Source: Spirochaetota bacterium | GTDB taxonomy: Bacteria; Spirochaetota; JAGLSM01; JAKPMW01 | Length of the DNA: 64,000 nt | NCBI GenBank assembly: GCA_031283155.1 | Contig: JAITCI010000018.1 | Span: forward strand, 13,690-77,689 | Direction of reading: 5' to 3' | Part shown: in pieces, positions 25,334 to 60,214 of the stretch | Layout of the letters: each line of letters opens with the position of its first letter | Position numbering within the stretch: the first letter of the stretch is position 1 | Made by a program: the position numbers and the translations under genes | Notes under the pieces: generated by a model | Seen by the model: the letters and a program-made list of their open reading frames with translations, nothing else | Told to the model about the DNA's origin: nothing | Databases searched by the model: none

Positions 25334-25369
25334 GCGTACATTACCCTACGGGCACTTCGCCATGTACGC
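25334..25369. repeat. Palindromic family core module
   Basis: GCGTAC-attaccctacgggcacttcgccat-GTACGC, homologous to 56724-56759 inside murT. Confidence 0.8.
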
Positions 25370-25459
25370 GCTCGGGACACGACATCCTGGTCGTAGCCTT
25401 CCGAAAATAGCCTCAGCATGATAGAATGGCAAGCCGCAGACAGCCGAAATGGAGGATAT

Positions 25460-26590
25460 ATGCGCATCAGCACGATAGAAGAGGCCGTGCAGTCGGCGCT
25501 GCAAGAGGCGCGCGCCGCCGAGGCAAAAGGTACCTACGGCGTTGGGGGCGCGCTGATCGATCTTCGGAGCGGCAGGCTGCTCAAAACCATGGAGAGTTCC
25601 GTTGTCGTGAACGGAAGGCTTATCGATCCGACCGCCCACGGCGAACGGAAATTGGTTGACTGGTATTTCGCGCAGGAGAATCGCGCGGATCTGGTCAAAC
25701 CGCAGGACGCCGCTATTATAACCTCATTGGATCCCTGCTGTATGTGTACGGGTTCCATATTGATCGGCGGTTTCCGCGCGATCATCGCCGCGCCGGACGA
25801 CAAGGCCGGAATCAATTATGACGGAACGAATAGCTTTCTGCCCTTTGACCGGCCTCTGCAAACATTTTACTACCCCGGGGTTCGCGATGGGGAATTCGCG
25901 CGGGAGGAATACGGCGTGCCGCCGGATATCTTTCAGCAAACCGATCTGCGCGCGGAAACCCACCGCGCTTGCCTGGACGCCTTTGTGTCCGGCGCGGCCA
26001 ACGCGAGGCGCGTCATCAGGGAGATGAACATCCCCGTGGAAAAGCTGCAGGATCTTGCGGCAAGCGCCGAAACCCCGCTGCGCGCGCTCTATCCGTATGC
26101 ACTCGGATACAGAGCGCCCAAACGCGGCTGCCCTGACCGCAAACTGCTGCCGTATCTCGAAGAAGCCGCCCATGCCGACGCGGCAAACGGAGGCGACGGC
26201 GACGCCGCCGCGTTTTTGGATTATTTCGGCAATCTGCTCATCTGTATGCCCGGGCAAAAAAACCGCTCCCCCATCCGCACCGCCTATATGGAAATGATCC
26301 GCGCCTACTCCCGTCTGCGGTATGATCTCGCGCAGGAAAACGCAAGCGCGCTCGCCTGGCTGCATGAGCCAAAACACGGTACCATTGTACTCTATCGGGG
26401 CTTCGACAAGGGCGCGCGCGGGCTGGTGGATCTCGGCGCGTATGGTTCCACGATTTCAGGCGGACGCCCTGTAGACCGGAATCTCCTCTGCGTCCATGAA
26501 CGCATCCCGGGCGATGCGCTTGCGACATTCATCGCGAATATGCCCCCGCGCTACCGCGATTTAATACGGCCGCAGCGGATGTTTGCCTGA
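25460..26590 (+). CDS. Zn-dependent nucleoside/nucleotide deaminase with long C-terminal extension
   Basis: DPTAHGE and LDPCCMC (HxE / PCxxC) motifs; GGAGG RBS before ATG 25460. Confidence 0.85.
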   Translation: MRISTIEEAVQSALQEARAAEAKGTYGVGGALIDLRSGRLLKTMESSVVVNGRLIDPTAHGERKLVDWYFAQENRADLVKPQDAAIITSLDPCCMCTGSILIGGFRAIIAAPDDKAGINYDGTNSFLPFDRPLQTFYYPGVRDGEFAREEYGVPPDIFQQTDLRAETHRACLDAFVSGAANARRVIREMNIPVEKLQDLAASAETPLRALYPYALGYRAPKRGCPDRKLLPYLEEAAHADAANGGDGDAAAFLDYFGNLLICMPGQKNRSPIRTAYMEMIRAYSRLRYDLAQENASALAWLHEPKHGTIVLYRGFDKGARGLVDLGAYGSTISGGRPVDRNLLCVHERIPGDALATFIANMPPRYRDLIRPQRMFA

Positions 26591-26601
26591 ACCGCAGAAA
26601 A

Positions 26602-26690
26602 AATTCAATATGCCAAAAATGGCATGAATACAGCGCACTGAAATTTGCTGTACAACGAAACCATTGATCCCCATTTTCCAGAAAGCCATT
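26602..26690 (-). pseudogene. Degenerate relic of one PPC-like repeat
   Basis: Aligns to 23348-23438 (GFLENGDQWFRFTANSNTQYIHAIFGTLN) with substitutions and a frameshifting deletion of about 2 bp. Confidence 0.8.
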
Positions 26691-26707
26691 TTGTGCTACC
26701 CTGCGGT

Positions 26708-27244
26708 ATGCGATACGTCATTATTACCGGTCCCCGAAAGGCCGGAAAAAGCTGCAGCCTGCTGAAAACGGCGGAAAAATTACAAGCGTCCGGAATGCCT
26801 CTGGGAGGCGTTATCACCAGACGGGTACCGGGACACAGCGAAGGCGACGACCGCGAAATTGTTAAGCCCGGCGGCACAGAGGCGATACCCTTCTGTTCCC
26901 GAATCGAATGGGGCGCGCGCGATGATGTATTTAAGGAAGGTCATTTTTATTTTTCAAAATCCGCTTTTGCGAAGGGCAACGCATGGATCCGCGCCGGTCT
27001 GGAGAGCGGCGTTTTATTTATCGATGAAATAGGCGGTCTGGAAATGGCGGAGAATAATGAATATAAGTGGGATTTTGCGCTTCCTCTGGCGCAGGACAGG
27101 GGGAAAAAGCAAACGCTCCTGTTTTCCGTAAAGGAAAATCTGGTTGACGGATTTATTGAAAAATATAAATTCAGTTGGAAAATTATAAGAGCGGAAAACG
27201 GCGAGGACATAAGCGATAGGATTCTTGCAGAAATAGAATACTAA
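26708..27244 (+). CDS. P-loop NTPase (NTPase_1/DUF2478-like)
   Basis: IITGPRKAGKS Walker A, LFIDEIG Walker B; start moved to ATG 26708 because the upstream codons are the repeat relic. Confidence 0.8.
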   Translation: MRYVIITGPRKAGKSCSLLKTAEKLQASGMPLGGVITRRVPGHSEGDDREIVKPGGTEAIPFCSRIEWGARDDVFKEGHFYFSKSAFAKGNAWIRAGLESGVLFIDEIGGLEMAENNEYKWDFALPLAQDRGKKQTLLFSVKENLVDGFIEKYKFSWKIIRAENGEDISDRILAEIEY

Positions 27245-27326
27245 AGCCGTGAAAAACCAGGGCGCGTCCCTGAAATGTTTTTTCGCCAATTGCGGGCAGC
27301 ATACCGCTTAGCCAATACAGGAGAGT

Positions 27327-29816
27327 TTATTTCGCCTTTTTTGCGTCGGCTGCGCTGATAGACGTGTCGTAAAGACCGATGTCCTCTCCTTCGTGCCGAT
27401 TGATTCCAGTATACTCCAGCGAGGAATCCTCATAGCGCTTGAACTTATACACTGCGTCGTTCATAAGGGCGCTATTGAATACGCCCAGCGATACGAGCAA
27501 CTCGAAATCTTTGATTTCCAAACCGGTCGTCTTTTTGAAAAGCCCCGGCTCTAATTGCGTAATAACGTCCTTCAGCGAGCGCTCGCGGTAGTCCGTCAGA
27601 TACATAAAGACGGGAATACGCGTTGCGAATTTAATAAGTTTCTCCTGAATTTGCTTGCGGACGCTCTTATATTCTTTTTCTTCCTCGGTAAGCTGTTTCT
27701 TCTCTTTTTCGGAAAGTTCCTTCTCGTTCGCTTTTGTTTTGAGTTTATTTACGCTCTCGGACTTGTTGATAATCGTTTCTATATCCTGATTGAGATTGCG
27801 GAAACCTTCGATATTCATAAGGGCTTCCATCGCTTTCGGATTGTCCATCAAGCGGCGAAGAGTATTGTTATCTACGTTGACGAGCAAGGCGCTTTCCCAG
27901 CGGCGGGCGAGTAAGGTCGCCGTCGTACCGGCCATCGCCATATCGAGAACTCCGGCTGCGTCGATTTGTTTCATAGAACTTCCGTCGTAGGCGAGGACGG
28001 GCAGGAAATTGATAAACTCCGCAACCTTCTTCTCGGGATTGCTTTCGTTCAGGTCGAGACGGCAACTATATTCCGCAATCTGCTTCAACGCGCGGTCGGG
28101 CGCGAAATCAAACACGTAGCAGTCCTCTTTGAGTATCGTATCCGTTCCGTCGGGGTTCTTCGTCGTCCACGGCGTTTGAACGCGGAAGGCGGCCTGGAAG
28201 TAGGTCTCGGGGCTTGACGAGTTGCGGAGCATAAAGATACCCGACCACGGCTTTACCGATACCCCGGTCGTCAGTTTGCCGCAGGAGAGGGTTATCGTCT
28301 TTGTTTTGAGCGGGTCGTCCATTCCCTTGAATACGGGGAAAAGCGCTTGCACCCCAATACCGGCTTCGCTGCCGGCGGCGACGATAACCTGATAATCCTT
28401 GTAAAAGATATTTTGCCGTTTATCCAAAAGATTTTTCATAGCATAGCAACTGGCGACGGACGGCAAGAACCAGAACGTATGGGTGAGCAGCCCGAGCAAT
28501 CGAGCGTCCGAGAATGGCATAGGCGGTTTTTGAGTGCCGAGTTTCAAACTGTCGATAGTCGTTTCCATAAACGCGCCGCGAATGAGGTCGAGCCATTTTT
28601 GAACTTCGCTCTCGTGCATGAATTTCGCCTTGTCCGCAGCGTCGGCAGCCGAGAAAAACTCGTTGAGGTCGAACTCGTTAAACTCGCCTTGCAGGGCAAC
28701 ATCGCGGATTGCATCCGGCAGTTGATAGGTAAGCATAACCATTCGCGGAAGCGAACTGTAGGGGTTAGTATTCTTCCTGTCCTTCCATGCATTTTTTTCA
28801 CGCTGCTCGTCGGAATACGTCCAGTTATAGATTTGTTCTTCGATAAACTCGCCGCTTGCGATGGCGCGAAACGGCGTACCGGACAGATACAAATACGCGC
28901 CGGTAGTTATGGGCATATTGTTTTCGTCGTAGTAATCCAGCCCCGCGCCTTCTTCCCGCTTGTCTTCCGCTTCAAATAAATCCTTAGCGTTTTCGCGCCA
29001 CGCGCCGTAATGGTATTCATCCAGAATCACGCAGTCCCAGTTCGCAGAATGGACCCATTCGTTTTTCGCCTTGATACCGCCGACTTTGTTCTTTCCGAGT
29101 AAATCCTGAAACGAGCCGAAGGCAACCATCGGACCGGCTTTGCGCGGCCTGGAAAACGACGCTTCCCCGGTATGCTCTTTGCAAACTATGAACTGCCAAC
29201 CGTCAAAGTCGGTATGGGATTTCAAATCATCCTCCCATGCGTTTTGAGCGGCGGGCTTGAAGGTAAGGACAAGTATCTTCGTCCAGCCCATCGCCTTTGC
29301 GAGTTGGTAAGCGGTGAAAGTTTTGCCAAAACGCATTTTGGCGTTCCATAGAAAATGCGGGGTCTTATGCGGGTTTTCTTTTTTGTAACTTTGGAAATAC
29401 GCCATTGTCTTTTTGACGGCGGCTTCCTGCTCGGGCCGCATTCCAAAGGTGTTCGTGCGCGGCATATCGAACTCTTTGCGCTCGCGCAGGGCAACGCAGG
29501 CGGCCTTTACGTCGCGGACGGAGCATTTGAACCATTCGCCCTCGGGGTTCAGGAACTTCCGATTGCGAAGATAGCGGTGAACATCGTGGTCGGTAAAAGA
29601 CGAGCCATCCTCGCGCATTGCGGTTTCTATCAATACGATTTTATAAGGGGCTTTGCCTGGACGCTTGGTCGGGTATTGCTGGGCGACGCGCTCTTCGGCG
29701 GACTGGGCGGATGTATAGCCGACTTTTAATAGTCCGGCATACTGCGGGTTTGTATCCTCATAGGCATAGATTGTCGGGCAAGCCTCGGGGCGCTTTGGGA
29801 AAAAGTCCTTATTCAT
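27327..29816 (-). CDS. T5orf172/GIY-YIG nuclease fused to SF2 (ResIII-like) helicase
   Basis: IYAY...LLKVGYT...EGEWF; AKMRFGKT, LDEYH, LSGTP, KLTTGV, YFQAAFR. Confidence 0.85.
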   Translation of the reverse strand: MNKDFFPKRPEACPTIYAYEDTNPQYAGLLKVGYTSAQSAEERVAQQYPTKRPGKAPYKIVLIETAMREDGSSFTDHDVHRYLRNRKFLNPEGEWFKCSVRDVKAACVALRERKEFDMPRTNTFGMRPEQEAAVKKTMAYFQSYKKENPHKTPHFLWNAKMRFGKTFTAYQLAKAMGWTKILVLTFKPAAQNAWEDDLKSHTDFDGWQFIVCKEHTGEASFSRPRKAGPMVAFGSFQDLLGKNKVGGIKAKNEWVHSANWDCVILDEYHYGAWRENAKDLFEAEDKREEGAGLDYYDENNMPITTGAYLYLSGTPFRAIASGEFIEEQIYNWTYSDEQREKNAWKDRKNTNPYSSLPRMVMLTYQLPDAIRDVALQGEFNEFDLNEFFSAADAADKAKFMHESEVQKWLDLIRGAFMETTIDSLKLGTQKPPMPFSDARLLGLLTHTFWFLPSVASCYAMKNLLDKRQNIFYKDYQVIVAAGSEAGIGVQALFPVFKGMDDPLKTKTITLSCGKLTTGVSVKPWSGIFMLRNSSSPETYFQAAFRVQTPWTTKNPDGTDTILKEDCYVFDFAPDRALKQIAEYSCRLDLNESNPEKKVAEFINFLPVLAYDGSSMKQIDAAGVLDMAMAGTTATLLARRWESALLVNVDNNTLRRLMDNPKAMEALMNIEGFRNLNQDIETIINKSESVNKLKTKANEKELSEKEKKQLTEEEKEYKSVRKQIQEKLIKFATRIPVFMYLTDYRERSLKDVITQLEPGLFKKTTGLEIKDFELLVSLGVFNSALMNDAVYKFKRYEDSSLEYTGINRHEGEDIGLYDTSISAADAKKAK

Positions 29817-32017: not shown

Positions 32018-32265
32018 TTCTTTTTATTCCGCGCCAGGGGTGAGTAGTTTCGTATATTCGCCACAGGCGTGTTTGGGAAATGTCTCCGCCAGAGTGGGTG
32101 CTTGCTGATTGGCGGCATCCGCAGGTTTCTGGGCATAATCTTCAATAATATATTGATTGCTAATTATATGCGCATGGACGTTCAGGGGATTTATGGAGGG
32201 AAATGCGTATACAACGCCGCTCAAAAATCGCGGCAAACGAAATTTATAATTAGAAGAGGGAATTA

Positions 32266-32277: not shown

Positions 32278-32457
32278 ATCTGGCAAATTTGGTGTATGCT
32301 TTTGCGCACACGGCTTCATGCCCGAAAGGCGAGGACGAATGGAAATTCGAAGCGGGCATCGTTTTGCGTGTCATATCTTTACAGTATATCTACATTGCCC
32401 AATTTTGCAAACAAAAATTTTCGCGGCGGAAATTCAGCCGCGAAAAGGCACGAAAAG

Positions 32458-32609
32458 CCCCGCGCCAAGCGCAACATCCTGTTGCGCGCGGGGTGCTTGC
32501 GTCCTGCAAGCACAACTACAAGGCATTTGGCCACGAAAAATGCCGAATAAAGTCCCCGCGCCGGTCGCAACATCCTGTTGCGCGCGGGGTGCTTGCATCG
32601 TGCAAGCAC
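32458..32609. repeat. Two tandem copies (96-bp period) of the modular palindromic element
   Basis: CCCCGCGC..GCAACATCCTGTTGC.GCGCGGGG-TGCTTGC(GTCCT/ATCGT)GCAAGCAC at 32458 and 32554; a TTTTCGCGGC/GCCGCGAAAA hairpin lies just upstream. Confidence 0.9.
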
Positions 32610-32919: not shown

Positions 32920-33918
32920 CTACCGGGAAACCGCAAGCACCGCGATGCGCGTATGTCCCGCGAGATCCTGCCTGGTCTCGCAGGAGAAACCGGCCTCGCG
33001 CGCGAGGCGCAGCACCCCCGTCAGAACGCTGTCGCTGATCTCAAAAACCGCTCTTCCCTGCGGCGCGAGTATTTTCGGTAAAGCGTTTATAAGCCTGCGA
33101 TAGAGCGCGAGCCCATCATCCTCTGCTGTCCCTCGCGCTTGTGCCCGAAAGGGTATACTTGCGCCATCCCCGCTTTGCGCGTTTCGCGTGGCTTCGCTCG
33201 GGATGCAACATCCTGTTGCTATCAGAGCCTGCGCGGGTTCGTATATGCGGACGTCGGGCATACAGGCATGATACTCCGCGGTGCCGAGATACGGCGGGTT
33301 GGAGACAATGAGATCAAAATTTCCTTCAATCCCCGCGAAGAGATCGCCCAGCACAAATGCGCAGCGCGCGCGTTCGCCCGCATCGAGCAACCTCTCGGCG
33401 TTACGCTTGGCCCAGGCGAAGGCGTCGGGAGATATCTCCGTCGCCCACACCTCAGCCTCCGGAAAAATACGCGCGAGACAGATCGCAAGCGCGCCGCTGC
33501 CCGTACCCACATCGATGATCCGACGCGGAGTAATCGTGAACGCGCGCGTGATATCGATAATCAATTCGGTTTCCGGGCGCGGGATCAGCACCTCCGGGCC
33601 GACCGCAAACGAAAGCCCATAAAATTCGCGTTCTCCGGTTATATAGGCAATCGGCTCAAACGCGGCGCGGCGCGCGAGCACAGCCTGATATTTTTCCGTC
33701 TCTTCGGCGTCAAGAGCGCGCTCGGGATGCGCGTAGAGATCGGATCGCCCCGAGCGCAGTACAAACGCGAGCAGCACTTCCGCGTCGAGGCGGGCGTTAT
33801 AATCGGTTTCTTGAATTGGCGAATGGGCTGCCCATGCACTATGAAGCCGGAGCGCGCCCGCGTCCAGCGCGTCGCGCACAGTCTTTGCGTGGCTTACGGC
33901 GTGGTCAGAGGCTTTCAT
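32920..33918 (-). CDS. prmC: Release-factor glutamine methyltransferase with a 30-aa insertion
   Basis: LIPRPETE, DVGTGSG, SNPPY; downstream of prfA; start ATG 33918. Confidence 0.93.
   Translation of the reverse strand: MKASDHAVSHAKTVRDALDAGALRLHSAWAAHSPIQETDYNARLDAEVLLAFVLRSGRSDLYAHPERALDAEETEKYQAVLARRAAFEPIAYITGEREFYGLSFAVGPEVLIPRPETELIIDITRAFTITPRRIIDVGTGSGALAICLARIFPEAEVWATEISPDAFAWAKRNAERLLDAGERARCAFVLGDLFAGIEGNFDLIVSNPPYLGTAEYHACMPDVRIYEPAQALIATGCCIPSEATRNAQSGDGASIPFRAQARGTAEDDGLALYRRLINALPKILAPQGRAVFEISDSVLTGVLRLAREAGFSCETRQDLAGHTRIAVLAVSR
33130..33219. repeat. Palindromic element inserted in frame in prmC
   Basis: Contains GTGCCC-GAAA-GGGTA, CATCCC/GGGATG and GCAACATCCTGTTGC modules shared with intergenic copies. 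Confidence 0.8.
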
Positions 33919-38339: not shown

Positions 38340-39278
38340 TCACTTTTTGCCTGGACGCTTCAGGCTGCTCTGGGGCATTCGTGCCTTACCCGGAGATAAC
38401 GACGGCGCGGTGGCGGATTTGTTATACGAAAGCATGACAGTGCCGGCATCGTCGGTGTAATACGCCCACACGCGGAGATAGTATGTTCCTCCGCTCACAA
38501 GCGACGTCCATCGCGCAGATGGTTCATCTTCGGGGACATAATATATGAAAAGGTTTTCTATTTCCCCTTCAAGCGCGCCAGATCCGGTAAACATCTGCAC
38601 ATATATATCATACACCGAAGAGTCCTCGTAGAGATGTATATAATGCGTCGCCGCTGTCGCGGTAAACTTAAACCACCATACTCCGCCTGCATTCAGATGC
38701 CCGCCCAGCCACTCGCCTTCAGTAAGCTCGGTAGTGATAGAATTTGCCGGTGGCCAGGTTTCACCCGGCAGCATAGGAGATCCGTTAATTGTCATTTGGT
38801 ATGCGCCGACGTCGGAGTCATCATATGCCCACACGCGCATATAATACGTCTGCCCAATTTCAAGCGTCCGCGCCATAACCAACTGAGAGCCATACTCTTC
38901 ATCATCGAACAGATTTTCCTCATCGCCGACAACAGCGCCGGTACCGGCATACACCTGCAGCAATACGTCCGACAGAGTGCTGGGCTTAAAATGTATATGC
39001 TGCGTTGCTGCCGTCGCTGTAAAGCGAAACCACTGTGTTCCGCCTGCGGCAGTGATATTCCCGTTTACCCATGTGTTGAAACTCAACTCCGTCACGGACG
39101 CCGACGCCCAGGGAAGAGAAGAATCGCCGCCGCTGTCGGATGAGCCGCCGCCTGGTATACTGCTGCTTCCGCCCTCATCATCGCCGCCACAGGCAGCACA
39201 CAGAGCGCAGAAGACGATCAGAATTAAGGACAGAAAAATGAAGCGGGAAGAAAAACCACTCCTGGTATCGATCTTCAT
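38340..39278 (-). CDS. Lipoprotein with two PPC-like repeats (paralogue of 20472-24128)
   Basis: Lipobox CAAC, GGTQWFRFTATAATQHIH, GQTYYMRVWAY; ATG 39278 with GAGGTGG RBS. Confidence 0.8.
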   Translation of the reverse strand: MKIDTRSGFSSRFIFLSLILIVFCALCAACGGDDEGGSSSIPGGGSSDSGGDSSLPWASASVTELSFNTWVNGNITAAGGTQWFRFTATAATQHIHFKPSTLSDVLLQVYAGTGAVVGDEENLFDDEEYGSQLVMARTLEIGQTYYMRVWAYDDSDVGAYQMTINGSPMLPGETWPPANSITTELTEGEWLGGHLNAGGVWWFKFTATAATHYIHLYEDSSVYDIYVQMFTGSGALEGEIENLFIYYVPEDEPSARWTSLVSGGTYYLRVWAYYTDDAGTVMLSYNKSATAPSLSPGKARMPQSSLKRPGKK

Positions 39279-42025: not shown

Positions 42026-42088
42026 GCCGACAGGACGTCAGCACCCCGCATGGTACCCTGTGAGTAATGGCACCGTATTTATGCGGGG
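42026..42088. repeat. Palindromic element overlapping the ddl stop and abutting the ftsA promoter
   Basis: GCCGACAGGACGTCAGC hairpin plus CCCCGCAT/ATGCGGGG stem; similar to 52604-52676. Confidence 0.8.
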
Positions 42089-43035
42089 CTGCTATCCGCC
42101 AAAGCCGATTCCAGGATGCGCTCCACAAGCGCGTCAAAGTCAATCCCGGCTTCTCTTGCCTCGGCGGGAATATCGCTCGTTTCCGTCATTCCCGGCAGAG
42201 TATTCACCTCAATGATCCACACCTCGCCGTTTTCATCCACAATGGCGTCCACACGCGAGAGCCCCCGGCATCCGAGGAGCCGATGCACCCGGAGCGCAAG
42301 ACTCTGCGCATGGGCGTATACCATCGGCGGAAGCGCTGCCGGAAGAACAAATCGCGTGAGACCTGCGGTATATTTTGCTTCGTAATCATAAAATTCCCTG
42401 CCGCCCATAGGTTCCAGCCCAAGCACAGGCAGAGCAAAGGCCTCGCAGCCCGTGCCGAGGATGCCGGTGGTGATCTCCTTACCGCATATATATTGCTCGA
42501 TGATCGTTTGCGGATATAGCTCCGCGACCTCGTTTGCTGCGGCAAAAAGCGCATCGGCGTCATGCGCAATCCGCACCGCGATGGAGGATCCCTCCTCGGT
42601 GGGCTTCACAACCAGCGGAAAACCAAAATGCTCGCGCGCCTCCGTGCAGCTTGCCGCCCTGTTCTGCCCGATGAGTACACAGGGAGGCTGCCGGATGCCC
42701 TCCGCCGCCAGAAAGCGCTTTGTGGAGAGCTTATTCATGGCGATGGCCGAGGTAAGCACCCCCGATCCGGTATAGGGAATATCCATGCACTCCAGAAGCC
42801 CCTGAATACAGCCGTCCTCTCCATAGCGTCCATGCAGCGCGATATAGGCAAGCTGCACCCCTTCCTCGCGCAGTCGGAAAGCAATCTCATTATCCACGTC
42901 TATCTGTACCGCGTCCAGCCCCAGGCGTTTGCAAGCCGCAAATACATTCGCGCCGCTCCGGAGAGAAACCTCGCGCTCGCGGGATTTCCCCCCGCAGAGT
43001 ACCCCCACGCGGAGGGCGCAGAGTCCCTCAGTCAT
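42079..43035 (-). CDS. ddl: D-alanine--D-alanine ligase
   Basis: GGKSREREVSL, LHGRYGEDG, GSSI, YDYEAKY, EVNTLPG. Confidence 0.97.
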   Translation of the reverse strand: MTEGLCALRVGVLCGGKSREREVSLRSGANVFAACKRLGLDAVQIDVDNEIAFRLREEGVQLAYIALHGRYGEDGCIQGLLECMDIPYTGSGVLTSAIAMNKLSTKRFLAAEGIRQPPCVLIGQNRAASCTEAREHFGFPLVVKPTEEGSSIAVRIAHDADALFAAANEVAELYPQTIIEQYICGKEITTGILGTGCEAFALPVLGLEPMGGREFYDYEAKYTAGLTRFVLPAALPPMVYAHAQSLALRVHRLLGCRGLSRVDAIVDENGEVWIIEVNTLPGMTETSDIPAEAREAGIDFDALVERILESALADSSPA

Positions 43036-52594: not shown

Positions 52595-52603
52595 TGCTTT
52601 TTT

Positions 52604-52676
52604 GCTGACAGGACGTCAGCACGCAGCCCGCAACATGGCTTGTGCCCTGTGGGTAAGGTTGCGTATCTGGGCTGCG
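52604..52676. repeat. Palindromic element abutting the dcw -35 box
   Basis: GCTGAC-aggac-GTCAGC plus GCAAC-atggcttgtgccctgtgggtaag-GTTGC. Confidence 0.8.
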
Positions 52677-52718
52677 GGCGTTCCGAAAGGTTTTCTCCAC
52701 TTGTATGAGAGGCATGGT

Positions 52719-52837
52719 GGAAAGGGCGTCCAAAGTCTTGCCACTTTCACAAAGCTGCGCGAACGGGAGCGCTTGCTTTCCCGTGTTGCAGCGAAAAACG
52801 ACCGCTGAACCGCGAACATGGCGCGCGCGGCAATTTT
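52719..52837 (+). repeat. Direct repeat copy 1 (about 118 bp)
   Basis: Near-identical to 54951-55067 (a few substitutions and a 2-bp indel). Confidence 0.92.
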
Positions 52838-53224: not shown

Positions 53225-54829
53225 TTATTCTCTTATCATTTCAACATAATTCAAAGGGTTTATCAATACTGATACACCATCTGTTGTCTTCCCTGTCTTA
53301 AATACGTGTTTCCAAAAATCATAATTATTTTTTCCTGAAAATATTGTGCTTGCCATGCCTCTATCTTTCCATAGAGGCAATTTAACTAAATTTTTTACAA
53401 ATATTTCCAAGTTATGCCACAATTGATCATCAAAAGGTGTTTGGAATAATTTATTTTTATCAAATATCTTGCCAGTAGTAGAAAAATAACTTTCAACAAC
53501 TTTTTGTAGAAATAACAACCAATTATAAATTATTTCTTCTTTACTGATTCTATATGCAATTAAATGATCATCGGTTATATCTGCATCTTTTTTATCAATG
53601 ATCTTCTGCTCAATTCTGGACACACCTATATCAGGGTTGAATTTCCCGATATATATTACTTCAGCTATTATATTCAATAATTTCACAAGTTGATATATTT
53701 CAAGTTCTCTTGGGTTATTTCCCTCGTCAGTCTTATACCCGATATTTGTAGTTAAAATCAACTTTGAATCTAAAAATATTGAAAGAAATGTTTTTTCAAA
53801 GGCACTATATGATAAAGGGAGTCCTTTAGCTTTACCTTCAAAATCGATATAATCTTTTAATTTATTATCAGCAGAATAAGTTATTGAATGTTTTAAGCTG
53901 TCAATAATATATTTACGTATATTTATTCTTTCTCCTTTAAAATAATCTACCAATTGTTGCTCTGAAAAATCAAAATTATCGTCGCCAAAACTATGTTCTG
54001 ACTGATACCTCTTTATACGCTCATAATATAAGGTATTATTTAATTGGCGCATAATGGATTTATCAAATGCAATTTGCCGCAGAATACTGCCTGCATTTGT
54101 ATTTGTTTCTGTTAAGCGATCAACATCTGGACTCAAAAACAACCTTAAAAGCAATTTTTTACTATTCAATAAAATTTGTGCAACTGCCTTATGCTGCCCA
54201 TCAAAAATAACTATCTTTCCATCTTTAATGCGAGCCAACGAAATGTGCAACTGCGGATTACCCTTATAAAACTCTTTTACTAATAATGAGACGCTATTAT
54301 TGATACCACGAGGATTAATAAGACGATCATGAAACAGATATTCAATAGGTATATGTAAGAATACAGTTTTTTCATTGGACAAATTGTCTTCAAATATCTC
54401 AGAATAATAAATTTTGTTATCATTAATATCTGGAAACGAGTAAGAAAGTTTATTGTCTTCTATTTTATATTTAAATTCATACGAAGAACCGCCATAAAAT
54501 TTTAATACATCTTCGAGCGAGGCAGACCGACCATTATCCTTCTCGGATACATCCTTTTGAATTTTTCTTAATTTTGCCAATATTCTGGAAATCCTTAGAT
54601 CAGAGTCCTGTTTAGACTTATTGCAAGAAGCATGTGTAACAGCAAAATTTTCTTCAATATCTTTCCCTTTATTCGCCAAAGGAATAATATGGTCAATATT
54701 AGTATCATGTAAAACCAAATCTATAGATTCTTGGCATATATAACAGATATTGCTTTGAATTTTCAATAATTTTGCGGTTAAATCTTTATATTCGTCATTC
54801 GTTAATGCCTCTAAATATTTTGAAACCAT
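53225..54829 (-). CDS. HNH endonuclease fused to a ParB/DGQHR-like domain (AT-rich)
   Basis: CYIC...DHIIP...N...H..CN at the N-terminus; INPR...IFDGQHKAVAQ centrally; GGAGG RBS before ATG 54829. Confidence 0.8.
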   Translation of the reverse strand: MVSKYLEALTNDEYKDLTAKLLKIQSNICYICQESIDLVLHDTNIDHIIPLANKGKDIEENFAVTHASCNKSKQDSDLRISRILAKLRKIQKDVSEKDNGRSASLEDVLKFYGGSSYEFKYKIEDNKLSYSFPDINDNKIYYSEIFEDNLSNEKTVFLHIPIEYLFHDRLINPRGINNSVSLLVKEFYKGNPQLHISLARIKDGKIVIFDGQHKAVAQILLNSKKLLLRLFLSPDVDRLTETNTNAGSILRQIAFDKSIMRQLNNTLYYERIKRYQSEHSFGDDNFDFSEQQLVDYFKGERINIRKYIIDSLKHSITYSADNKLKDYIDFEGKAKGLPLSYSAFEKTFLSIFLDSKLILTTNIGYKTDEGNNPRELEIYQLVKLLNIIAEVIYIGKFNPDIGVSRIEQKIIDKKDADITDDHLIAYRISKEEIIYNWLLFLQKVVESYFSTTGKIFDKNKLFQTPFDDQLWHNLEIFVKNLVKLPLWKDRGMASTIFSGKNNYDFWKHVFKTGKTTDGVSVLINPLNYVEMIRE

Positions 54830-54879
54830 AAATCTTTTCCTCCAAAGCATCATACGATGTATTTATTTCTATATGCTTC

Positions 54880-54940
54880 ATTATTTCACAGGAAATATCT
54901 TTTGTCAACTGTTTTTCCCATATTTGTTTTTCCCATATTT
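54880..54940 (-). promoter_or_regulatory. Putative promoter of the HNH gene preceded by a 15-bp tandem repeat
   Basis: TTGACA-N17-AATAAT; GTTTTTCCCATATTT x2 at 54911-54940. Confidence 0.55.
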
Positions 54941-54950
54941 ATACATTTTT

Positions 54951-55067
54951 GGAAAGGACGTCCAAAGTCTTGCCACTTTCGCAAAGCTGCGCGAACGGGA
55001 GCGCTTGCTTTCCCGAGTTGCAGCGAAAAACGACCGCTGAACCGCGAATGACGCGCGCGGCAATTTT
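54951..55067 (+). repeat. Direct repeat copy 2
   Basis: Near-identical to 52719-52837. Confidence 0.92.
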
Positions 55068-55114
55068 CGCCTGACCGATGGAATAAAAAGCAAAAGCAGT
55101 GGCCGCGCCCTGCG

Positions 55115-55333
55115 TCAGACGACCTGGTAAATGATCGGGCGGTACTGAGGTTTCGGAATCGGGATATTGCTGTTTTTTGCCTCTTCAAGCCAAAGTTTTT
55201 GGGCGATTAAGACCTGTTGCAGAGCGTCATTCGGCGTTTTTCCAAAAGCGCTGCAATTCTTCAAGTCCGGAATATCCGCAATATATCCTTCGTCGTCATC
55301 ACTGTAAAAAATATTTATATGATAGTCCTTCAT
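55115..55333 (-). CDS. hicB: HicB-family antitoxin (short)
   Basis: YIADIPDLKNCSAFGKTPNDAL; no C-terminal DNA-binding domain. Confidence 0.88.
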   Translation of the reverse strand: MKDYHINIFYSDDDEGYIADIPDLKNCSAFGKTPNDALQQVLIAQKLWLEEAKNSNIPIPKPQYRPIIYQVV

Positions 55334-55335
55334 GA

Positions 55336-55587
55336 TCAGTCCTCCATTTTCAAATTATATTTTTCAATCAAGGCAAAGAACTGCCTTACCTGATACGGCT
55401 TAGCTTCACCATGGACATTTTGAATGTTCATAATTTCTTTAACTGAGTCATTCCTGAATATAGTATGGCTTCCTTCTGTCCTCGCGAGATAAAATCCATA
55501 CGCTTCAAGAATAGTTACAAAGTCATTGTATTTAACATTCTTTTGATTGGAGAGTATTTGCTGAAGCAGTTTTTGCTTATTCAACAA
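55336..55587 (-). CDS. hicA: HicA-family toxin
   Basis: LEAYGF..RTEGSH.IF...AKPYQVRQ. Confidence 0.88.
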   Translation of the reverse strand: MLNKQKLLQQILSNQKNVKYNDFVTILEAYGFYLARTEGSHTIFRNDSVKEIMNIQNVHGEAKPYQVRQFFALIEKYNLKMED

Positions 55588-55829
55588 TATGCTCCTTTAT
55601 TCCCCGCGACGCCGTTTATAACAGCGGCTGCGTTTCCATTATAGACAAAAGAGCCGCTGCTGGCAAGCTCGCCGCCGCCCGGGGCACATTCAGAGACGGA
55701 ACGATTTTTGTACTGGTTCCCGCGTATCTTTTATCCGGGATTATGCCTTTCAGGTATTACGGCACACAACTTCGCGGCTATGTAGTCTTGTCGTCCCCGC
55801 TCGCGGAACGCTTGCTTTCGGCGGGAAGT

Positions 55830-55892
55830 GCCCCGCACTTTTCGACATCCGTGTCAGTGCGGGGTGCTCCCCTTCCAGGTACGCATGTTTGG
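55830..55892 (+). repeat. Palindromic element, direct-repeat partner of 60151-60214
   Basis: CCCCGCAC-ttttcGACATCCGTGTCa-GTGCGGGG-tgctccccttccaggtac. Confidence 0.85.
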
Positions 55893-56104
55893 TTCACACG
55901 CGGGACGGCAGAACAGATATCAATACGATCAGGATCGCTGACTATTTTCGTATGCGCCATCTGCTCCCCAAAAAAATATCTGCCTGTAAACATGGATTTT
56001 TATGACGCAGCGGCTCTGCGCTGGCATAATGTGCGGTTTGTTTTGCCGCACAGGCGCGCGGCGTTAAATTTAACCGTATCGCAGTCCGGATCGAGGAGCG
56101 CGGT

Positions 56105-57532
56105 TTGATACAGGCACAGAGGCGTCTTTTGGCCGTATGGATATGCAAGATGCTCATCATCGCCGGGAAGCTGCTCGGGAAGCGCGGCTCCGCGACCCCG
56201 GGCAAATTCGCGCTACGCATCGCGCCGGATATCCTGCGGCATCTCGCGGCGCAGGTCCGGCAGGGGATTATTGCCGTATGCGGCACAAACGGCAAAACCA
56301 CAACAAATAATTTTATATACACCCTGCTCCGCGCCGGAGGGTATACCCTGGTTTGCAACCGCGTGGGCGCGAATATGCTCTATGGCGCGGTAACGGCGTT
56401 CGCGGACGCGGCGGGATACGGCGGCAGGCTCAACGCCGATTTCGCGTGCATAGAGGTGGACGAACTCTCCGCCGTTAAGGTGTTTGCGCATTTCACGCCA
56501 AATATTATTGTGATTACAAATTTGTTCCGCGATCAGCTTGACCGGTACGGCGAGATCGATATCACCATCGAAAGCCTGAAGCGCGCTGCTGCGCAAGCGG
56601 GGAAAGCAACGCTCCTCCTGAATGCCGACGACCCCATGCTCGCCGCGTTTGGCAGGGAAGTACGCGCGCAGGGACACGCGAACATAAAATATTTCGGCTT
56701 GCGCGATGCCCCGCTCGGTCAAAGCGAACCTTACCCACAGGGCACTTCGCCATGTTCGCAGCGCGGGGTGCAGCCTCCGTGCTGCACAAGCATCGAAACC
56801 AGGGAGGGGCGCTTCTGTCGGCTCTGCGGCGCTGAACTCAAATACGATGCGTATTATTACAGCCAGCTAGGCCGCTACGCCTGCCCGCGCTGCGGCTTCA
56901 CGCGCCCCGAACCGGACTACACCGCCGAAAATATAACCCTCGATGGCGGCATCGCCTTTGATCTGGACGGTACGCATATCGCGGCGGACTATCGCGGCCT
57001 CTACAATATTTATAATATGCTCGCCGCCTGCGCGGTGCTGTGGGAATACGATATACGCGCTGTGGATATCAACAAAGCCTTTGCCGGATACCGCCCGCAG
57101 ATCGGCAGGATGGAAACCTTTACGATTGGCGGCAAGCAGGTTATCCTGAACCTCTCCAAAAATCCCGCCGGCTTCAATCAGGCCATCGCCGCCCTGCGTA
57201 CCGACACGCGAAGCAAGACTGTGGTTATCGTGATCAACGACAACGATCAGGACGGGCGCGACGTTTCCTGGCTCTGGGACGTTGATTTTGAGCGCCTTGA
57301 CAACATCCCGGATATTATCACAAGCGGCCTGCGCGCCGCCGATATGCGGGTGCGCATGAAGTACGCGGGCAATATGGCGCGCATACTGCCCGAAATCAAG
57401 GAGGCGATCCGCGCCGCGCTTCTGTGCGATTCCGATGTCGTGTATACGCTTGTGAATTATACCGCGCTCTTTTATACGCACGATTTGTTAGAGAAATTAT
57501 CAAAGCGGCGAACGAGGTTTATATGGAAATAA
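56105..57532 (+). CDS. murT: Lipid II isoglutaminyl synthase subunit MurT
   Basis: GTNGKTT, NLFRDQLDRYGE, Cys4 finger CRLC/CPRC, DUF1727 LSKNPAG...DGRDVSWLWD. Confidence 0.92.
   Translation: MIQAQRRLLAVWICKMLIIAGKLLGKRGSATPGKFALRIAPDILRHLAAQVRQGIIAVCGTNGKTTTNNFIYTLLRAGGYTLVCNRVGANMLYGAVTAFADAAGYGGRLNADFACIEVDELSAVKVFAHFTPNIIVITNLFRDQLDRYGEIDITIESLKRAAAQAGKATLLLNADDPMLAAFGREVRAQGHANIKYFGLRDAPLGQSEPYPQGTSPCSQRGVQPPCCTSIETREGRFCRLCGAELKYDAYYYSQLGRYACPRCGFTRPEPDYTAENITLDGGIAFDLDGTHIAADYRGLYNIYNMLAACAVLWEYDIRAVDINKAFAGYRPQIGRMETFTIGGKQVILNLSKNPAGFNQAIAALRTDTRSKTVVIVINDNDQDGRDVSWLWDVDFERLDNIPDIITSGLRAADMRVRMKYAGNMARILPEIKEAIRAALLCDSDVVYTLVNYTALFYTHDLLEKLSKRRTRFIWK
56708..56787. repeat. Palindromic element inserted in frame in murT
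   Basis: CCCCGC...GCGAAC-cttacccacagggcacttcgccat-GTTCGC..GCGGGG-TGCAGC-ctccgt-GCTGCAC. Confidence 0.85.
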
Positions 57533-58257
57533 CCATCGGGCATTTGTACCCTGATTTGCTGAACCTCTACGGCGACCGCGGCAATATCATGGCGCTGGTG
57601 CGCCGCCTGGAGTGGCGCGGGATCGGTGCGAAAATACGCGAATACCGCCTGCATGACGATATCGATTTCGCGGCGCTCGATATCGTATTCCTCGGCGGCG
57701 GCTCTGATCGCGAACAGATGCTGGTCTGCGCACGCCTCCGCGAGATCCGCAGCGCCTTCGCCGATTACGTGGAAAGCGATGGCGCGGTCATCGCGATCTG
57801 CGGCGGCTATCAGCTTTTGGGCGAATACTACCGCATGGGCGACGCGGTCATCGAGGGCTTGCGCATCCTGGACGTCCGCACCGAGAATGAGCCCGGCCGC
57901 CTCATCGGGAACGTCGTCATTCGCTCGCCCCTCTCTTCCATGCCGATAGTTGGTTTTGAGAATCACGGCGGACGGACATATATCGGCGAACACACGCCGC
58001 TTGGCCGCGTTATCACGGGCGGCGGCAATAACGGCAAAGACGGACACGAGGGCGTACAATACAAAAATGTCCTCGGCACCTATTTACATGGGCCGCTCCT
58101 GCCCAAAAATCCGGAACTCTGCGACTGGATATTGCGCGCGGCGCTTTTGCGCAAGGGCTATACATCGGAGCTTGCGCCGCTGGACGACACGATGGAGATT
58201 ACCGCGAATCGCGCGGTCGCGGAGAGGTTCGCGGGGAAGATGGCGAAGCGACCGTAG
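57523..58257 (+). CDS. gatD: Glutamine amidotransferase subunit GatD
   Basis: HLYPDLLNLYGDRGN, AICGGYQ, GFENH, TYLHGP; ATG overlaps the murT end. Confidence 0.92.
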   Translation: MEITIGHLYPDLLNLYGDRGNIMALVRRLEWRGIGAKIREYRLHDDIDFAALDIVFLGGGSDREQMLVCARLREIRSAFADYVESDGAVIAICGGYQLLGEYYRMGDAVIEGLRILDVRTENEPGRLIGNVVIRSPLSSMPIVGFENHGGRTYIGEHTPLGRVITGGGNNGKDGHEGVQYKNVLGTYLHGPLLPKNPELCDWILRAALLRKGYTSELAPLDDTMEITANRAVAERFAGKMAKRP

Positions 58258-58430
58258 GGGCTACGACAGGAAGTCGTGTCCCGCGAGCGTACATGGATGT
58301 ATGCTCTTGCGCAGGGGGAGGCGCAAATAATTCTGTTTTTTTTTGTGACAGGTATCGCACACTGAAATAACTGCGCAAAAATACATTTATAAGCAGCGCT
58401 CTGCCGCCGCAAACACGAGGTTTGCGACTG

Positions 58431-58465
58431 GCGCGCAACAGGATGTTGCGACCGGCGCGGGGACT
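58431..58465 (-). repeat. Exact 35-bp reverse-complement copy of 32551-32585
   Basis: GCGCGCAACAGGATGTTGCGACCGGCGCGGGGACT. Confidence 0.92.
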
Positions 58466-58510
58466 ACGAATTAACCTCAGATACGATCCATATTGGAAAC
58501 GTCCCGCTGG

Positions 58511-58882
58511 CTATGAACCGAGTAATATACATAAATGCGCAAGAGCTAAAGCAAACAATGAGTAAATAATTGCCTTTGAATAATATGCTGAAAAGCCATT
58601 GCTGTTATGGTTTCTGAAACCATAATGAAGAATTGCGTGTCCTATAAGGAAAATATCAATGCTCACTTTCAATATATACCCTGATTGCATACTCTCGTTA
58701 CATAAAACATAAAATGCCGCTATATACAGCGGAAAATGTATGAACAAAAATACTTTATACGCCGTCTCCTCGGACATATCTTTAAGCACAATAAACATTT
58801 TCCATTCCCTTGCCCGTATCGCATCCATCTCATGAAGCAGCAAAAGAGAAATAATGACTACAAACAATATATATTCTGTCAT
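58511..58882 (-). CDS. Small AT-rich membrane protein (DUF6713-like)
   Basis: LLLHEMDAIRAREWKMF...F.FIHFPLY; 4 hydrophobic segments. Confidence 0.65.
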   Translation of the reverse strand: MTEYILFVVIISLLLLHEMDAIRAREWKMFIVLKDMSEETAYKVFLFIHFPLYIAAFYVLCNESMQSGYILKVSIDIFLIGHAILHYGFRNHNSNGFSAYYSKAIIYSLFALALAHLCILLGS

Positions 58883-59211
58883 ATAGCTGCACCACCAATA
58901 ATCACATTACGCATATTATTCATCCGCCTGCTATAAAGATCTGATAAAATATACAAACGCTTGGCAGGGGATATTTAATAAGTATACCATGTTCTGTCAA
59001 AACACAAGGAAAGAATCTCACTTTAGAGCTATTCTTACTGGAGAAAGTTAAAACTGCACTGGAAGGGTCATATAGGAGAAGCCTTCTATGCGAAAGCGCC
59101 TGACTATGGTCTCAAGCCCATTGGGAAAATTCCCTTAGAAGGAAGTCCTGACGCGAAAGACTACCGCAATATGAAATACATAAAGCTGTAACAACAGTGC
59201 AAGGAAAACCC

Positions 59212-59718
59212 ATGACTACAACCTTAAAAATATACCCGTGCCTTGTGCTTATGGCACTTCTACTCAACTGCGGGACTAAGGCTTCCGCGCCCGCGAACTT
59301 TGGGGAGTTCCCTGCTGACTTACATATAACTCTTCCTAAAGATACACAAATATCACTAAGGGAACTTTTGAATGGCTCAAGGTTCAGAACACAGATAGCT
59401 CAAACTGGAGCACCCATAACAGTGCTTTTAGAATCATCCTCTGGAAAAGAAAAATATTTTACCACTAATTTCTCGTATTCAACAGAGGATAGCCTCACAA
59501 AAGAGACGATAAAAAAGAAAATACAAATAATCTTCTATATTGTAACTGGCCGAGAAGGAAACGAGTCCATAACTATCAGTGCAATAAGAATTGTTGATCC
59601 TAAAACTGGAGAAGAAAATTCTTTAGGAGAGCATAGCGCGGCAGCCACTATGATCAAACAAATATCACCTCTTTTCAATGATGAAACTTGCAGGGCTTTC
59701 TATAACGCAATTAACTAA
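59212..59718 (+). CDS. AT-rich hypothetical lipoprotein
   Basis: AAGGA RBS, lipobox LLNC. Confidence 0.6.
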   Translation: MTTTLKIYPCLVLMALLLNCGTKASAPANFGEFPADLHITLPKDTQISLRELLNGSRFRTQIAQTGAPITVLLESSSGKEKYFTTNFSYSTEDSLTKETIKKKIQIIFYIVTGREGNESITISAIRIVDPKTGEENSLGEHSAAATMIKQISPLFNDETCRAFYNAIN

Positions 59719-60150
59719 CTCACCCCCAAAAAGCTACACTAACCTCTCCTGCTTAATACAGAAGCCGCGCTGCGAGCATCACTTGCCTGAATTTTCGCAC
59801 CGCCCTTCGCAAAAGTAAGGAATCCCGCTTCCGCAAATTATAGAACTCCAGGCGGCGGTGACTTTCGTCAGTATAGCTCCCGTAAACATTGCTATAGGAT
59901 TACTTTCTACTACATTTCATCCTGTGCCAGGTGAAACATAAAACCGGGCGGAAAATGTTCTCTGTGGCGCTTAACGGCTTGATTCAGAGCCTTAAGCTCA
60001 GCTCTGTATAATTCCGCTCAATCACGGCCAAGCATGACTTTTGACCCGTGAATTTCGTCCCGCTCGCGTTGTGCGCGTTGCGCAGGGATTTCATGGCCAG
60101 AAATTTCTTTGCTTTTGCATATCCTGCGGAACGGCATTTTCGGAGGCTAT

Positions 60151-60214
60151 GCCCCGCACTTTTCGACATCCATGTCGGTGCGGGATGTTCCCCTTCCTGG
60201 TACACAACGTTTGG
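60151..60214 (+). repeat. Palindromic element within a repeat cluster (about 60050-60430)
   Basis: Matches 55830-55892; the cluster also holds GTGCCCTGTG, AGTCCCCGCGC and a TTCCGAAGT/ACTTCGGAA hairpin. Confidence 0.85.

Follow-up and report, generated by a model that had tools for sequence, protein, structure and literature searches.

A dispersed, mosaic family of polar TCC-loop hairpin repeats in a Spirochaetota genome

The window analysed here, a stretch of 64,000 nucleotides from a Spirochaetota bacterium (GCA_031283155.1; contig C56:13690–77689), carries ten short palindromic repeats whose stems differ in sequence yet stay paired. What are these repeats, how did they spread, and what recognises them? 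A sequence-only reading of the window had taken them for a dispersed, modular family with compensatory base changes, analogous to repetitive extragenic palindromic (REP) elements and to Rickettsia palindromic elements (RPE), and that reading is essentially right. The family has spread as DNA, with hundreds of copies in this genome against 0–2 in its relatives; it has inserted into conserved genes, and it is nested into itself. We consider that the units are probably selfish DNA elements, recognised as a single strand, and form a lineage-specific, non-autonomous mosaic resembling REP elements, bacterial interspersed mosaic elements (BIME) and RPE. Since the stems differ yet stay paired while the loop stays TCC, the recognised feature is probably a folded single strand with a TCC loop.

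The basic unit spans about 55 nt. Its outer stem, 5'-CCC(C)-NNNN...NNNN-(G)GGG-3', bears a 5' bulge and encloses an inner hairpin with a CA/TG closure and an (A)TCC(N) loop; 3' of it stands a second, simple hairpin whose loop reads TCC or TCG. Throughout the genome 92 hairpins are nested in a perfect outer stem, which mostly follows this C-run/G-run pattern; their bulge lies on the 5' side only and measures 3–7 nt (mostly 4–6), and the second TCC/TCG hairpin is usually present 3' of the nested unit. Adjacent hairpins have the same orientation in 74 cases and opposed orientation in 9, which shows the multi-hairpin unit to be polar. The stems sort into discrete subfamilies with hardly a position in common (CGTACA 49 copies, GCGACA 42, GCAACA 36, CGCCA 24, AGAACA 21, AAAACA 16, GCGGCA 14 and some 30 rarer types) around a loop that stays (A)TCC(N).

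All ten copies that had been named are present, each as a compound hairpin with a second hairpin 3' of it and folding as had been described, with z-scores of -2.0 to -5.9 under DNA folding parameters; in a genome-wide blastn search each has 5–64 matches. They are given below with scores for R1 (our covariance model of the unit), for the Rfam family RF01690 and for the DNA fold; M2 is a module that is considered afterwards, and D13, D16 and I1 to I3 denote direct and inverted repeat families.

25334..25398, plus strand: 25334-type unit in a divergent intergenic region; GCGTACA/TGTACGC hairpin with M2 (TTACCC-TAC-GGGCAC-TTCGCC) replacing the TCC loop, then CTCGGGAC and a second hairpin ACGAC-ATCCTG-GTCGT; fold -13 kcal/mol, z -2.15; 64 blastn matches in the genome.
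32457..32513, plus strand: canonical two-hairpin unit; CCCCGCGC, bulge caa, inner GCGCAACA-TCC-TGTTGCGC, GCGGGG, second hairpin GTGCTTGC-GTCC-TGCAAGCAC; R1 50.8 bits; full-length RF01690 match of 30.7 bits, E 4e-4; z -5.35.
32553..32609, plus strand: second canonical unit, 96 nt 3' of the 32457 unit; TCG loop in the second hairpin; family D13; R1 49.7 bits; RF01690 26.3 bits; z -5.93.
33128..33222, plus strand: composite element within the minus-strand PrmC/HemK gene; CCCTCGC, reversed M2, CGCTTTGCGCG module, GCTCGGG, hairpin GCAACA-TCC-TGTTGC.
42026..42095, minus strand: unit 5' of ftsA, occupying the whole 70-nt spacer upstream of that gene; outer stem CCCCGCAT/ATGCGGGG, bulge aaatac, inner GGTGCC stem with an M2-like loop insert, second hairpin GCTGAC-GTCCT-GTCGGC; z -2.80.
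52603..52680, minus strand: unit; outer GCAGCCC/GGGCTGC, bulge agatac, inner GCAAC/GTTGC around TTACCCACAGGGCAC, second hairpin TGCTGAC-GTCCT-GTCAGCA; z -4.15; 35 blastn matches in the genome.
55829..55885, plus strand: unit; CCCCGCAC, bulge tttt, inner CGACA-TCCG-TGTC(A), GTGCGGGG, degenerate second hairpin; family D16, 89% identical to the 60150 copy; R1 45.7 bits; z -3.89.
56708..56790, plus strand: unit in MurT; outer CCCCGC.C/G.GCGGGG, inner GCGAAC/GTTCGC with M2 in the loop, second hairpin GCAGC-CTCCG-TGCTGC; z -2.54.
58408..58465, minus strand: 32553-type copy with a decayed 3' outer arm (GCGCCAG replaces GCGCGGGG); second hairpin CGCAAAC-CTCG-TGTTTGCG; families I1 and I2, 85–91% complementary to 32551–32602; z -3.63.
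60150..60206, plus strand: sister of the 55829 copy; CCCCGCAC, bulge tttt, inner CGACA-TCCA-TGTCG, GTGCGGG; family D16; R1 45.1 bits; z -4.01.

The stem variants that had been taken as compensatory are exact: CCCCGCGC/GCGCGGGG at 32458 and 32554, CCCCGCAC/GTGCGGGG at 55830 and 60151, and CCCCGCAT/ATGCGGGG at 42026. The same is true of GCGTAC/GTACGC (25334) and GCGAAC/GTTCGC (56708) around a common TTACCC-N3-GGGCAC core, and of the TTGC/GCAA, TGAC/GTCA and AGC/GCT stems around TCC loops.

The proposal that the family is modular gains from the behaviour of M2 (TACCC-N3-GGG(C/T)A, usually with a CTTCGCC or TAAAC tail), of which the genome holds 137 copies. M2 takes the place of the TCC loop in at least 8 stem subfamilies (GCGTACA about 15 times; GGTGCC, GCGAAC, CGCAAC, TGGGCA and others) and can also follow the inner hairpin, ahead of the 3' outer arm; in the window an M2-type insert is carried by the copies at 25334, 42026, 52604 and 56708. 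The M2 junctions fit an 18-nt insertion at A-T^CC-A. Intact relatives of the 42026 unit occur elsewhere in the genome (CCCCGCGT-aaatac-GGTGCC-ATCCA-GGCACC-ACGCGGGG). Other modules, for example TGCCTTGCACGCTTCGCG, recur beside the units, and because modules stand side by side in varied combinations we describe the family as a mosaic. Three additional features in the window belong here:

58263..58312, minus strand: reverse-oriented 25334-type unit without M2, directly 3' of the murT-gatD operon; GCATACA-TCCA-TGTACGC, CTCGCGGGAC, ACGAC-TTCCT-GTCGT; inverted repeat I3, 90% complementary to 25360–25389.
60212..60360, plus strand: trailing module mosaic found by the window module scan; CCCCGCGCTCGCC, M2-like TGTGCCCTGTGTGTA, TTGCCTTGCACGCTTCGCGC (M5, a module that recurs adjoining TCC hairpins across the genome).
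24212..24235, plus strand: solo 10-bp hairpin found by the window hairpin scan and absent from the sequence-only list; GGCATTGGCA-TCCG-TGCCAATGCC; its stem is present at a second genome site.

The assembly comprises 2.50 Mb in 89 contigs (53.9% GC, 94% complete). Gene positions used in the statistics are approximate, having been obtained with a crude caller based on codon usage (1919 genes, 85% coding). On the two strands 178 and 229 hairpins combine a TCC loop with a stem of 6 bp or more, compared with 38–91 for control triplet loops, an excess of about 250 genome-wide; the commonest loops among all perfect genomic hairpins are TCC/GGA (132), TCCA (61), TCCT (60) and TCG (60). At intergenic sites, at least three further base pairs flank CATCCTG in 47% of cases (n = 233), CATCC(A/G/C)TG in 64% and CATCGTG in 47%; ten of eleven control heptamers lie at 0–5%, and CTTCCTG at 15%. 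R1, built from 44 units with 11 pairs, recognises at least 97 units in this genome at E≤0.01 (150 of some 3000 candidates having been scored). The most frequent non-simple 11-mers of the genome are repeat cores: TACCCACAGGG (74 times), AACATCCTGTT (70), GACATCCTGTC (57) and AGCGTACATCC (53).

Covariation was assessed on samples unselected for pairing. For the inner stem, intergenic CATCCTG sites were taken regardless of whether they pair (150/207 distinct sequences): the covariation score is 0.378, a value that 0 of 500 shuffles reach, compared with 0.159 (sd 0.013) for shuffled partners and with 0.11–0.15 for slid partners. Cells changed on both sides number 251 where 119 are expected. The outer stem was anchored solely on the invariant C-run and G-run; exact complementarity of its variable segment is seen in 58 of 118 units where 9.6 are expected, in 12 distinct Watson-Crick versions which include GCGC, TCGC/GCGA, GCGT/ACGC, GAGC/GCTC, GCAC/GTGC and GCAT/ATGC. 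A caveat is provided by the large subfamily CCC-TCGC...GCTC-GGG (at least 25 copies), which has a fixed 2x2 mismatch instead of pairing. Chance GC-rich palindromes, the outcome that would have spoken against a family, are ruled out by the loop-specific controls and the shuffles; both the covariation and the further copies that such a family should have are there.

From the conserved pairing the sequence-only reading had concluded that there is selection on a single-stranded DNA or RNA structure. The constraint on pairing stands, but covariation by itself does not separate functional selection from a mode of copying that needs or regenerates hairpins. Complementarity might thus be kept by template switching or gene conversion between the arms, in which case the "compensatory" changes would be uninformative on function. 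In keeping with this, most stems pair perfectly by Watson-Crick rules, G.T intermediates are not in excess, and the subfamilies are discrete. Such a mechanism leaves unexplained the constant TCC loop amid diverging stems, the 5' bulge, whose asymmetry persists from subfamily to subfamily and in the genome of another family, and the fixed 2x2 mismatch of at least 25 copies; we regard it as very unlikely.

The relatives bear upon the age of the expansion. Of the 40 searched with R1, three gave weak matches (2, 1 and 1): two from the same genus, and G004, whose genome has 41% GC and belongs to a different Spirochaetota family; the range per relative is 0–2. Shallow scoring of 400 genomes of the phylum gave matches in G004 and G099 only. 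A 400-kb sample of a same-genus genome showed no TCC-loop excess, Rfam gave no matches at the relatives' loci, and an exact 36-mer had no match outside this genome in a collection described as 185,579 species genomes. The same-genus loci do hold units of like style, CCCCGCGC-catt-GGCC-GTCCTT-GGCC-TGCGCGGG and TTACCCTTCGGGCA. The single copy in G004 (C434:182963–183017, equal to locus L017 1501–1555) is GC-rich and lies in a gene-poor stretch; it reads CCCCGTGC-agtt-TGCGCCA-TCCG-TGGCGC-GCACGGGG, then ATGTTC-GTCG-TGAACAT, and so presents another compensated outer stem with the same bulge, TCCG loop and second hairpin with a TCG loop. This single copy may represent an ancestral form or a functional one. 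Since the relatives have 0–2 copies, and the same-genus units are like-styled yet without a TCC-loop excess, we take the expansion to be a lineage-specific burst of an older design.

That the elements insert is most readily seen in coding genes. In PrmC/HemK the copy at 33130 is translated in frame as 32 extra residues (IATGCC...AQARGT) between EPAQAL and EDDGL. The insertion is missing from 5 of 5 homologues compared, the nearest of which is 63–69% identical, and the uninterrupted site was read in the DNA of that homologue (locus L111). As to the terminal inverted repeats and target-site duplication of a miniature inverted-repeat transposable element, the element here is palindromic overall but yielded no defined terminal inverted repeats, and at the PrmC site a duplication is not evident in the comparison with this homologue. 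In MurT the copy at 56708 adds, also in frame, some 20–24 residues just before the Cys4 zinc ribbon; in an alignment with three homologues the insert is confined to this genome, and the BLAST match is broken exactly at residues 186–227. At other genome sites, at least two proteins (one of the radical-SAM type, one IorA-like) have in common a repeat-encoded peptide, ARSVQGN-ASRAA, in the same frame, and FtsK carries a translated piece of a different repeat, M4 (PDCFAALAMT). Coding insertions are tolerated in both orientations.

The in-frame copies at 33130 and 56708 strengthen the analogy that had been drawn with RPE, the elements reportedly described by Ogata et al. in 2000. In-frame insertion into genes, with both orientations tolerated, is well-known RPE behaviour (PMC10969869). 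In both systems palindromes are translated within unrelated housekeeping genes, and the same element gives rise to the same peptide in different proteins. Units here are shorter (55–95 nt versus about 100–150 nt) and only a small minority are intragenic; the phylum is unrelated, the base composition differs, and the genome is of a free-living type of 2.5 Mb; the likeness drawn here is one of behaviour.

As an analogue REP also serves well, but the family is not a REP/REPIN member. In common with REP and BIME, it comprises hundreds of imperfect palindromes that are short and rich in GC, whose sequence is species-specific and which lie for the most part outside genes; they are over-represented in convergent spacers and at the 3' ends of genes, and they form mosaics of short motifs as in BIMEs. 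Unlike REP/REPIN systems, the family has no RAYT (the Y1 transposase of such systems), no GTAG head and no REPIN doublets, its doublets being direct rather than inverted (74 vs 9); it conserves the loop rather than the stem, and it has insertions in coding regions.

The closest structural likeness is to RF01690, Bacillaceae-1, described as a candidate small RNA (sRNA) of Bacillaceae (Weinberg et al. 2010, PMC2864571) and present in 8 copies in B. subtilis (PMC8208703). At gathering thresholds Rfam has zero matches in the whole window. With relaxed thresholds the units at 32450–32510 and 32545–32606 align over all 67 model positions, scoring 30.7 and 26.3 bits (33.6 for the best unit of the genome), below the gathering score of 35. 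In both designs a 7-bp outer stem and an internal loop on the 5' side lead into a 5-bp inner hairpin whose loop is RUCCU, and a short linker joins this to a second RUCCU hairpin; the nested and second hairpins are found here with UCCU and UCGU loops, an A-rich AAAG lead is common to both, and both are multi-copy in their hosts. Here the host belongs to the Spirochaetota, there are some 100 or more units in place of a handful, and the 3' internal loop is absent. Because it is found shuffled among other modules and within open reading frames (ORFs), we see the unit as a module of a repeat element and not as a stand-alone sRNA gene; it is a fold-alike of Bacillaceae-1 and not a formal member. Gardner and Eldai (PMC4333381) have proposed that the reverse complement of Bacillaceae-1 holds two CsrA-binding motifs, the strand being uncertain. 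The Bacillaceae-1 architecture and the CsrA-consensus loop complement are additions beyond the sequence-only reading.

A third system of comparison is that of Chenal et al. 2025 (PMC11893778), in which NTS/dRS3 and Ssn-related motifs (SRM) make up hundreds of hairpin repeats acting as folded single-stranded DNA (ssDNA). A GIY-YIG ssDNA nuclease, whose gene is flanked by its own repeats, recognises NTS/SRM by sequence and structure; the SRM frame is HGTCWYN(0-2)YYVSBRH...RNCYNB, and Ssn is a cd10448 GIY-YIG protein of about 94 aa (PMC11893778). Like the Ssn/NTS repeats and NIMEs, the present units form mosaic intergenic arrays, and a nuclease gene flanked by repeats resembles the Rpn pattern reported below. 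Unlike SRMs, they have no HGTCWY...RNCYNB frame, and no cd10448 gene was found in the genome. The separate repeat M4 (window 16055–16155, and genome-wide), CGTCATTGCGA-[variable covarying hairpin]-GAAGCAATCCAGG, usually forms inverted pairs of about 100–170 nt, and its motif halves occur 74–132 times in the genome. In its frame CGTCATT...AATCC(A/T)GG, M4 (CGTCATT...AATCCAGG) is similar to the NTS of Neisseria (CGTCATTCCCGCG..CGCGGGAATCYRG), which the ssDNA nuclease SsnA binds. Integron attC sites, imperfect palindromes that have R''/L''-L'/R' boxes and stand in tandem cassette arrays beside intI, were set aside on account of the dispersal of the units across contigs of an 89-contig assembly, their presence inside housekeeping genes and their loops of 3–5 nt (intI was not searched for).

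What might move the family? No mobiliser had been seen in the window and none was found there by us, nor does the genome yield a RAYT/Y1, TnpB or Ssn-type gene. RAYT/IS200 Y1 transposases (PF01797) gave 0 matches in the 94%-complete genome while the control genomes were positive, and TnpB (PF07282) was not found in it. GIY-YIG matches in the genome consist of a 638-aa frame, which from its sequence we take to be UvrC, and one protein of about 105 aa on contig C45, which looks YhbQ/UPF0213-like rather than Ssn-like. The association with RAYT, TnpA or GIY-YIG genes that had been suggested as a check is thus not seen, for there is no PF01797 and the sole small GIY-YIG gene is without flanking repeats. 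Other transposase-like genes among the families searched are one borderline IS110 (C11:115–546) and one rve (C16:366–680), both single-copy and unlinked to the repeats, and hence rejected as mobilisers. Contig C11 also holds several R1 units.

These results leave little room for a classical REP/REPIN-RAYT system, or for SRMs tied to a GIY-YIG ssDNA nuclease, with the gene concealed in the unassembled 5–6% of the genome. Hundreds of short GC-rich palindromes at the 3' ends of genes are REP-like, M4 resembles the NTS bound by SsnA, and an assembly that is 94% complete does have a place for such a gene. To be set against this are the lack of PF01797 matches, the reading of the only small GIY-YIG protein as YhbQ/UPF0213-like and its want of flanking repeats, the direct rather than inverted neighbours (74 vs 9), units with neither a GTAG nor an HGTCWY head, and the absence of lagging-strand bias. 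We accord it minimal credence.

Under the selfish-element reading a trans-acting protein would probably bind the folded strand and perhaps cut within or beside the TCC loop. It would not be a RAYT/IS200 Y1 transposase, TnpB or an Ssn nuclease, and the best candidate in this genome is the Rpn-family PD-(D/E)XK nuclease, with its approximately 30 copies. Rpn (TIGR01784, PD-(D/E)XK nuclease/"putative transposase") is the only large multi-copy gene family, with 29–33 copies in three subfamilies, many of them at contig ends (for example C69:24956–25861, C37:7386–8267 and C12:8701–9561); same-genus genomes have 4–5 Rpn genes only. For 20 Rpn genes with complete flanks we scored TCC hairpins within 400 nt:

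Upstream hairpin: 35% of Rpn genes vs 8% of other genes (Fisher p 8e-4).
Downstream hairpin: 55% vs 9% (Fisher p 5e-7).
Hairpins on both sides: 25% vs 0.9% (Fisher p 2e-6).

Near Rpn genes the TCC sense prevails 21:4; near other genes the ratio is 206:217. Since the flanking units vary in stem type and in distance between copies, the association is more than co-duplication. In the same-genus genome G001, an Rpn gene precedes one of the two R1 matches by 570 nt on the same strand. One may be tempted to propose that the RUCCU double hairpin is the recognition module of single-strand hairpin elements found across phyla, with Rpn as its cognate here, binding the folded TCC strand and cutting T^CC in or next to the loop; this proposal is speculative and we hold it to be doubtful.

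Motif matches are 75–90% intergenic in a genome of which 15% is non-coding, and convergent spacers have 1.5–3.5 times more copies than divergent ones despite offering less sequence. Strand bias, which had been marked for checking, was found neither relative to co-directional genes (37 vs 35) nor relative to the replication strand as judged by local GC skew (205 vs 241; genes follow the skew in 78% of cases). The latter count disposes of a replication-strand bias as in Y1-type single-strand mechanisms. Occlusion of Shine-Dalgarno sequences or start codons by GGA hairpins was likewise discarded, start regions being without enrichment, as was a G.U wobble asymmetry marking an RNA strand (G.T vs A.C mismatches 16 vs 24 of 137).

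Several points weigh against selfish, single-strand-recognised elements with Rpn as the candidate partner. The gene families searched yielded no mobiliser. R1 units are missing from relatives that have 18–50 Rpn genes; the current view of Rpn proteins is that they are toxin-antitoxin or anti-phage nucleases and not transposases (bioRxiv 10.1101/2023.05.02.539157); the Rpn association could result from shared residence in variable islands, and the Rpn copies and their flanks are not independent. At the one insertion with a readable empty site, that in PrmC, no transposition event is seen: comparison with the 63–69% homologue reveals no target-site duplication and no defined terminal inverted repeats. 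The nearest genomes available share only 74% FtsZ identity, too little to reveal single copies being gained or lost, and gene calls come from the crude caller only. The lone copy of the same architecture in another family's 41%-GC genome would also fit an old, conserved functional RNA. Finally, 8 of 44 tRNA genes have hairpins within 60 nt 3' and all 11 such hairpins are in GGA sense, three of them beginning at -3 to 0 of the tRNA 3' end (examples are at tRNA-Gly C2:1017–1088, tRNA-Arg C47:124–199, tRNA-Gln C70:15073–15143 and tRNA-Gly C87:15477–15547); the median distance from the stop codon is 87 nt for GGA-sense hairpins vs 162 nt. The proximity to stop codons may arise in part from ORFs running into the element. 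Together these orientation signals hint at a role at the RNA level.

One such role would be the binding of CsrA by host RNA elements, GGA-sense hairpins of the form ACA(N)GGAUGU acting as a distributed sponge or as 3'-UTR (untranslated region) sites. The loop complement is ACA(N)GGATGT, which equals RUACARGGAUGU, reportedly the consensus of Dubey et al. (2005) from systematic evolution of ligands by exponential enrichment (SELEX). As in CsrA-sequestering RNAs of the CsrB/Rsm type, several A(N)GGA motifs stand in hairpin loops. A csrA gene is encoded at C18:10395–10550, there are two sites per unit at a spacing suited to a CsrA dimer, and the tRNA-downstream and stop-codon data favour the GGA sense. 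The same idea has been published for the Bacillaceae-1 reverse complement (PMC4333381), as a hypothesis that is unvalidated. With random orientation (37:35 among co-directional genes, 206:217 near genes) about half of the copies would present UCC and not GGA, and start regions lack the enrichment one would expect. The random orientation also speaks against one discrete, highly expressed sRNA gene on a single strand, as in CsrB/Rsm. Copies lie within ORFs in both orientations, the strands show no wobble asymmetry, and the same-genus and other relatives, whose CsrA content was not checked, have no expansion. We judge the CsrA explanation unlikely.

The units might alternatively be host 3'-end elements, either factor-independent terminators or stabilisers blocking 3' exonucleases, duplicated passively and with a loop kept for an RNA-processing enzyme. 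The excess in convergent spacers and downstream of genes would agree with this, as would the hairpins that begin at tRNA 3' ends; REP elements of E. coli have secondary 3'-end roles of this kind. The hairpins have no consistent U-tract, however, both orientations occur downstream of genes, and copies are found in ORFs and in divergent promoter spacers such as that of 25334. Near-identical discrete subfamilies and mosaic shuffling would not be expected of locally evolved terminators, and the relatives are without copies. An origin of this sort appears to us decidedly improbable. If the units are selfish elements, secondary effects on the host (3'-end hairpins, CsrA titration in the GGA sense) are possible and are not needed for the data.

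Should the Rpn-hairpin partnership be real, it would parallel RAYT-REPIN and Ssn-NTS, and the Rpn "transposases" would gain a DNA substrate. As it stands, the system is REP-like without a RAYT, and Rpn, flanked by the repeats in a fixed orientation, is a concrete and testable mobiliser candidate. An orphan Rfam family is recast as well, in that the fold of a candidate sRNA regarded as restricted to Bacillaceae is here a high-copy mosaic module in another phylum which can land in essential genes. The translated palindromes in the conserved PrmC and MurT provide a non-rickettsial case of the RPE phenomenon. For annotation, such repeats inflate ORFs, break assemblies and yield spurious "hypothetical proteins", and a covariance model would help to annotate metagenome-assembled genomes of this kind.

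As regards the surroundings, the nearest genomes in an FtsZ scan are "Spirochaetota bacterium" metagenome-assembled genomes (74% identity). The window contains the dcw/fts cluster, fliD, murT-gatD, an Eco57I-type methylase and an HNH gene, and a tRNA search of it found none. A k=11 repeat map of the window was too noisy, the genome being CGCGCG-rich; the commonest genomic 11-mer consists of C/G runs of at least 11 (229 occurrences), and words of the CGCGCGCGCGC type are strongly over-represented. The region from 52.6 to 60.4 kb is a hotspot in which accessory genes have repeat clusters between them, and here 110-nt direct repeats at 52718–52827 and 54950–55059 (94% identity) bracket the AT-rich HNH gene (53225–54853). 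On the minus strand at 20472–24128 lies a 1218-aa ORF made up of tandem repeats of about 330 nt (families D1–D10) with Neuralized-like and PPC domains, and units related to these repeats recur at 38635–39054 and 26599–26695.

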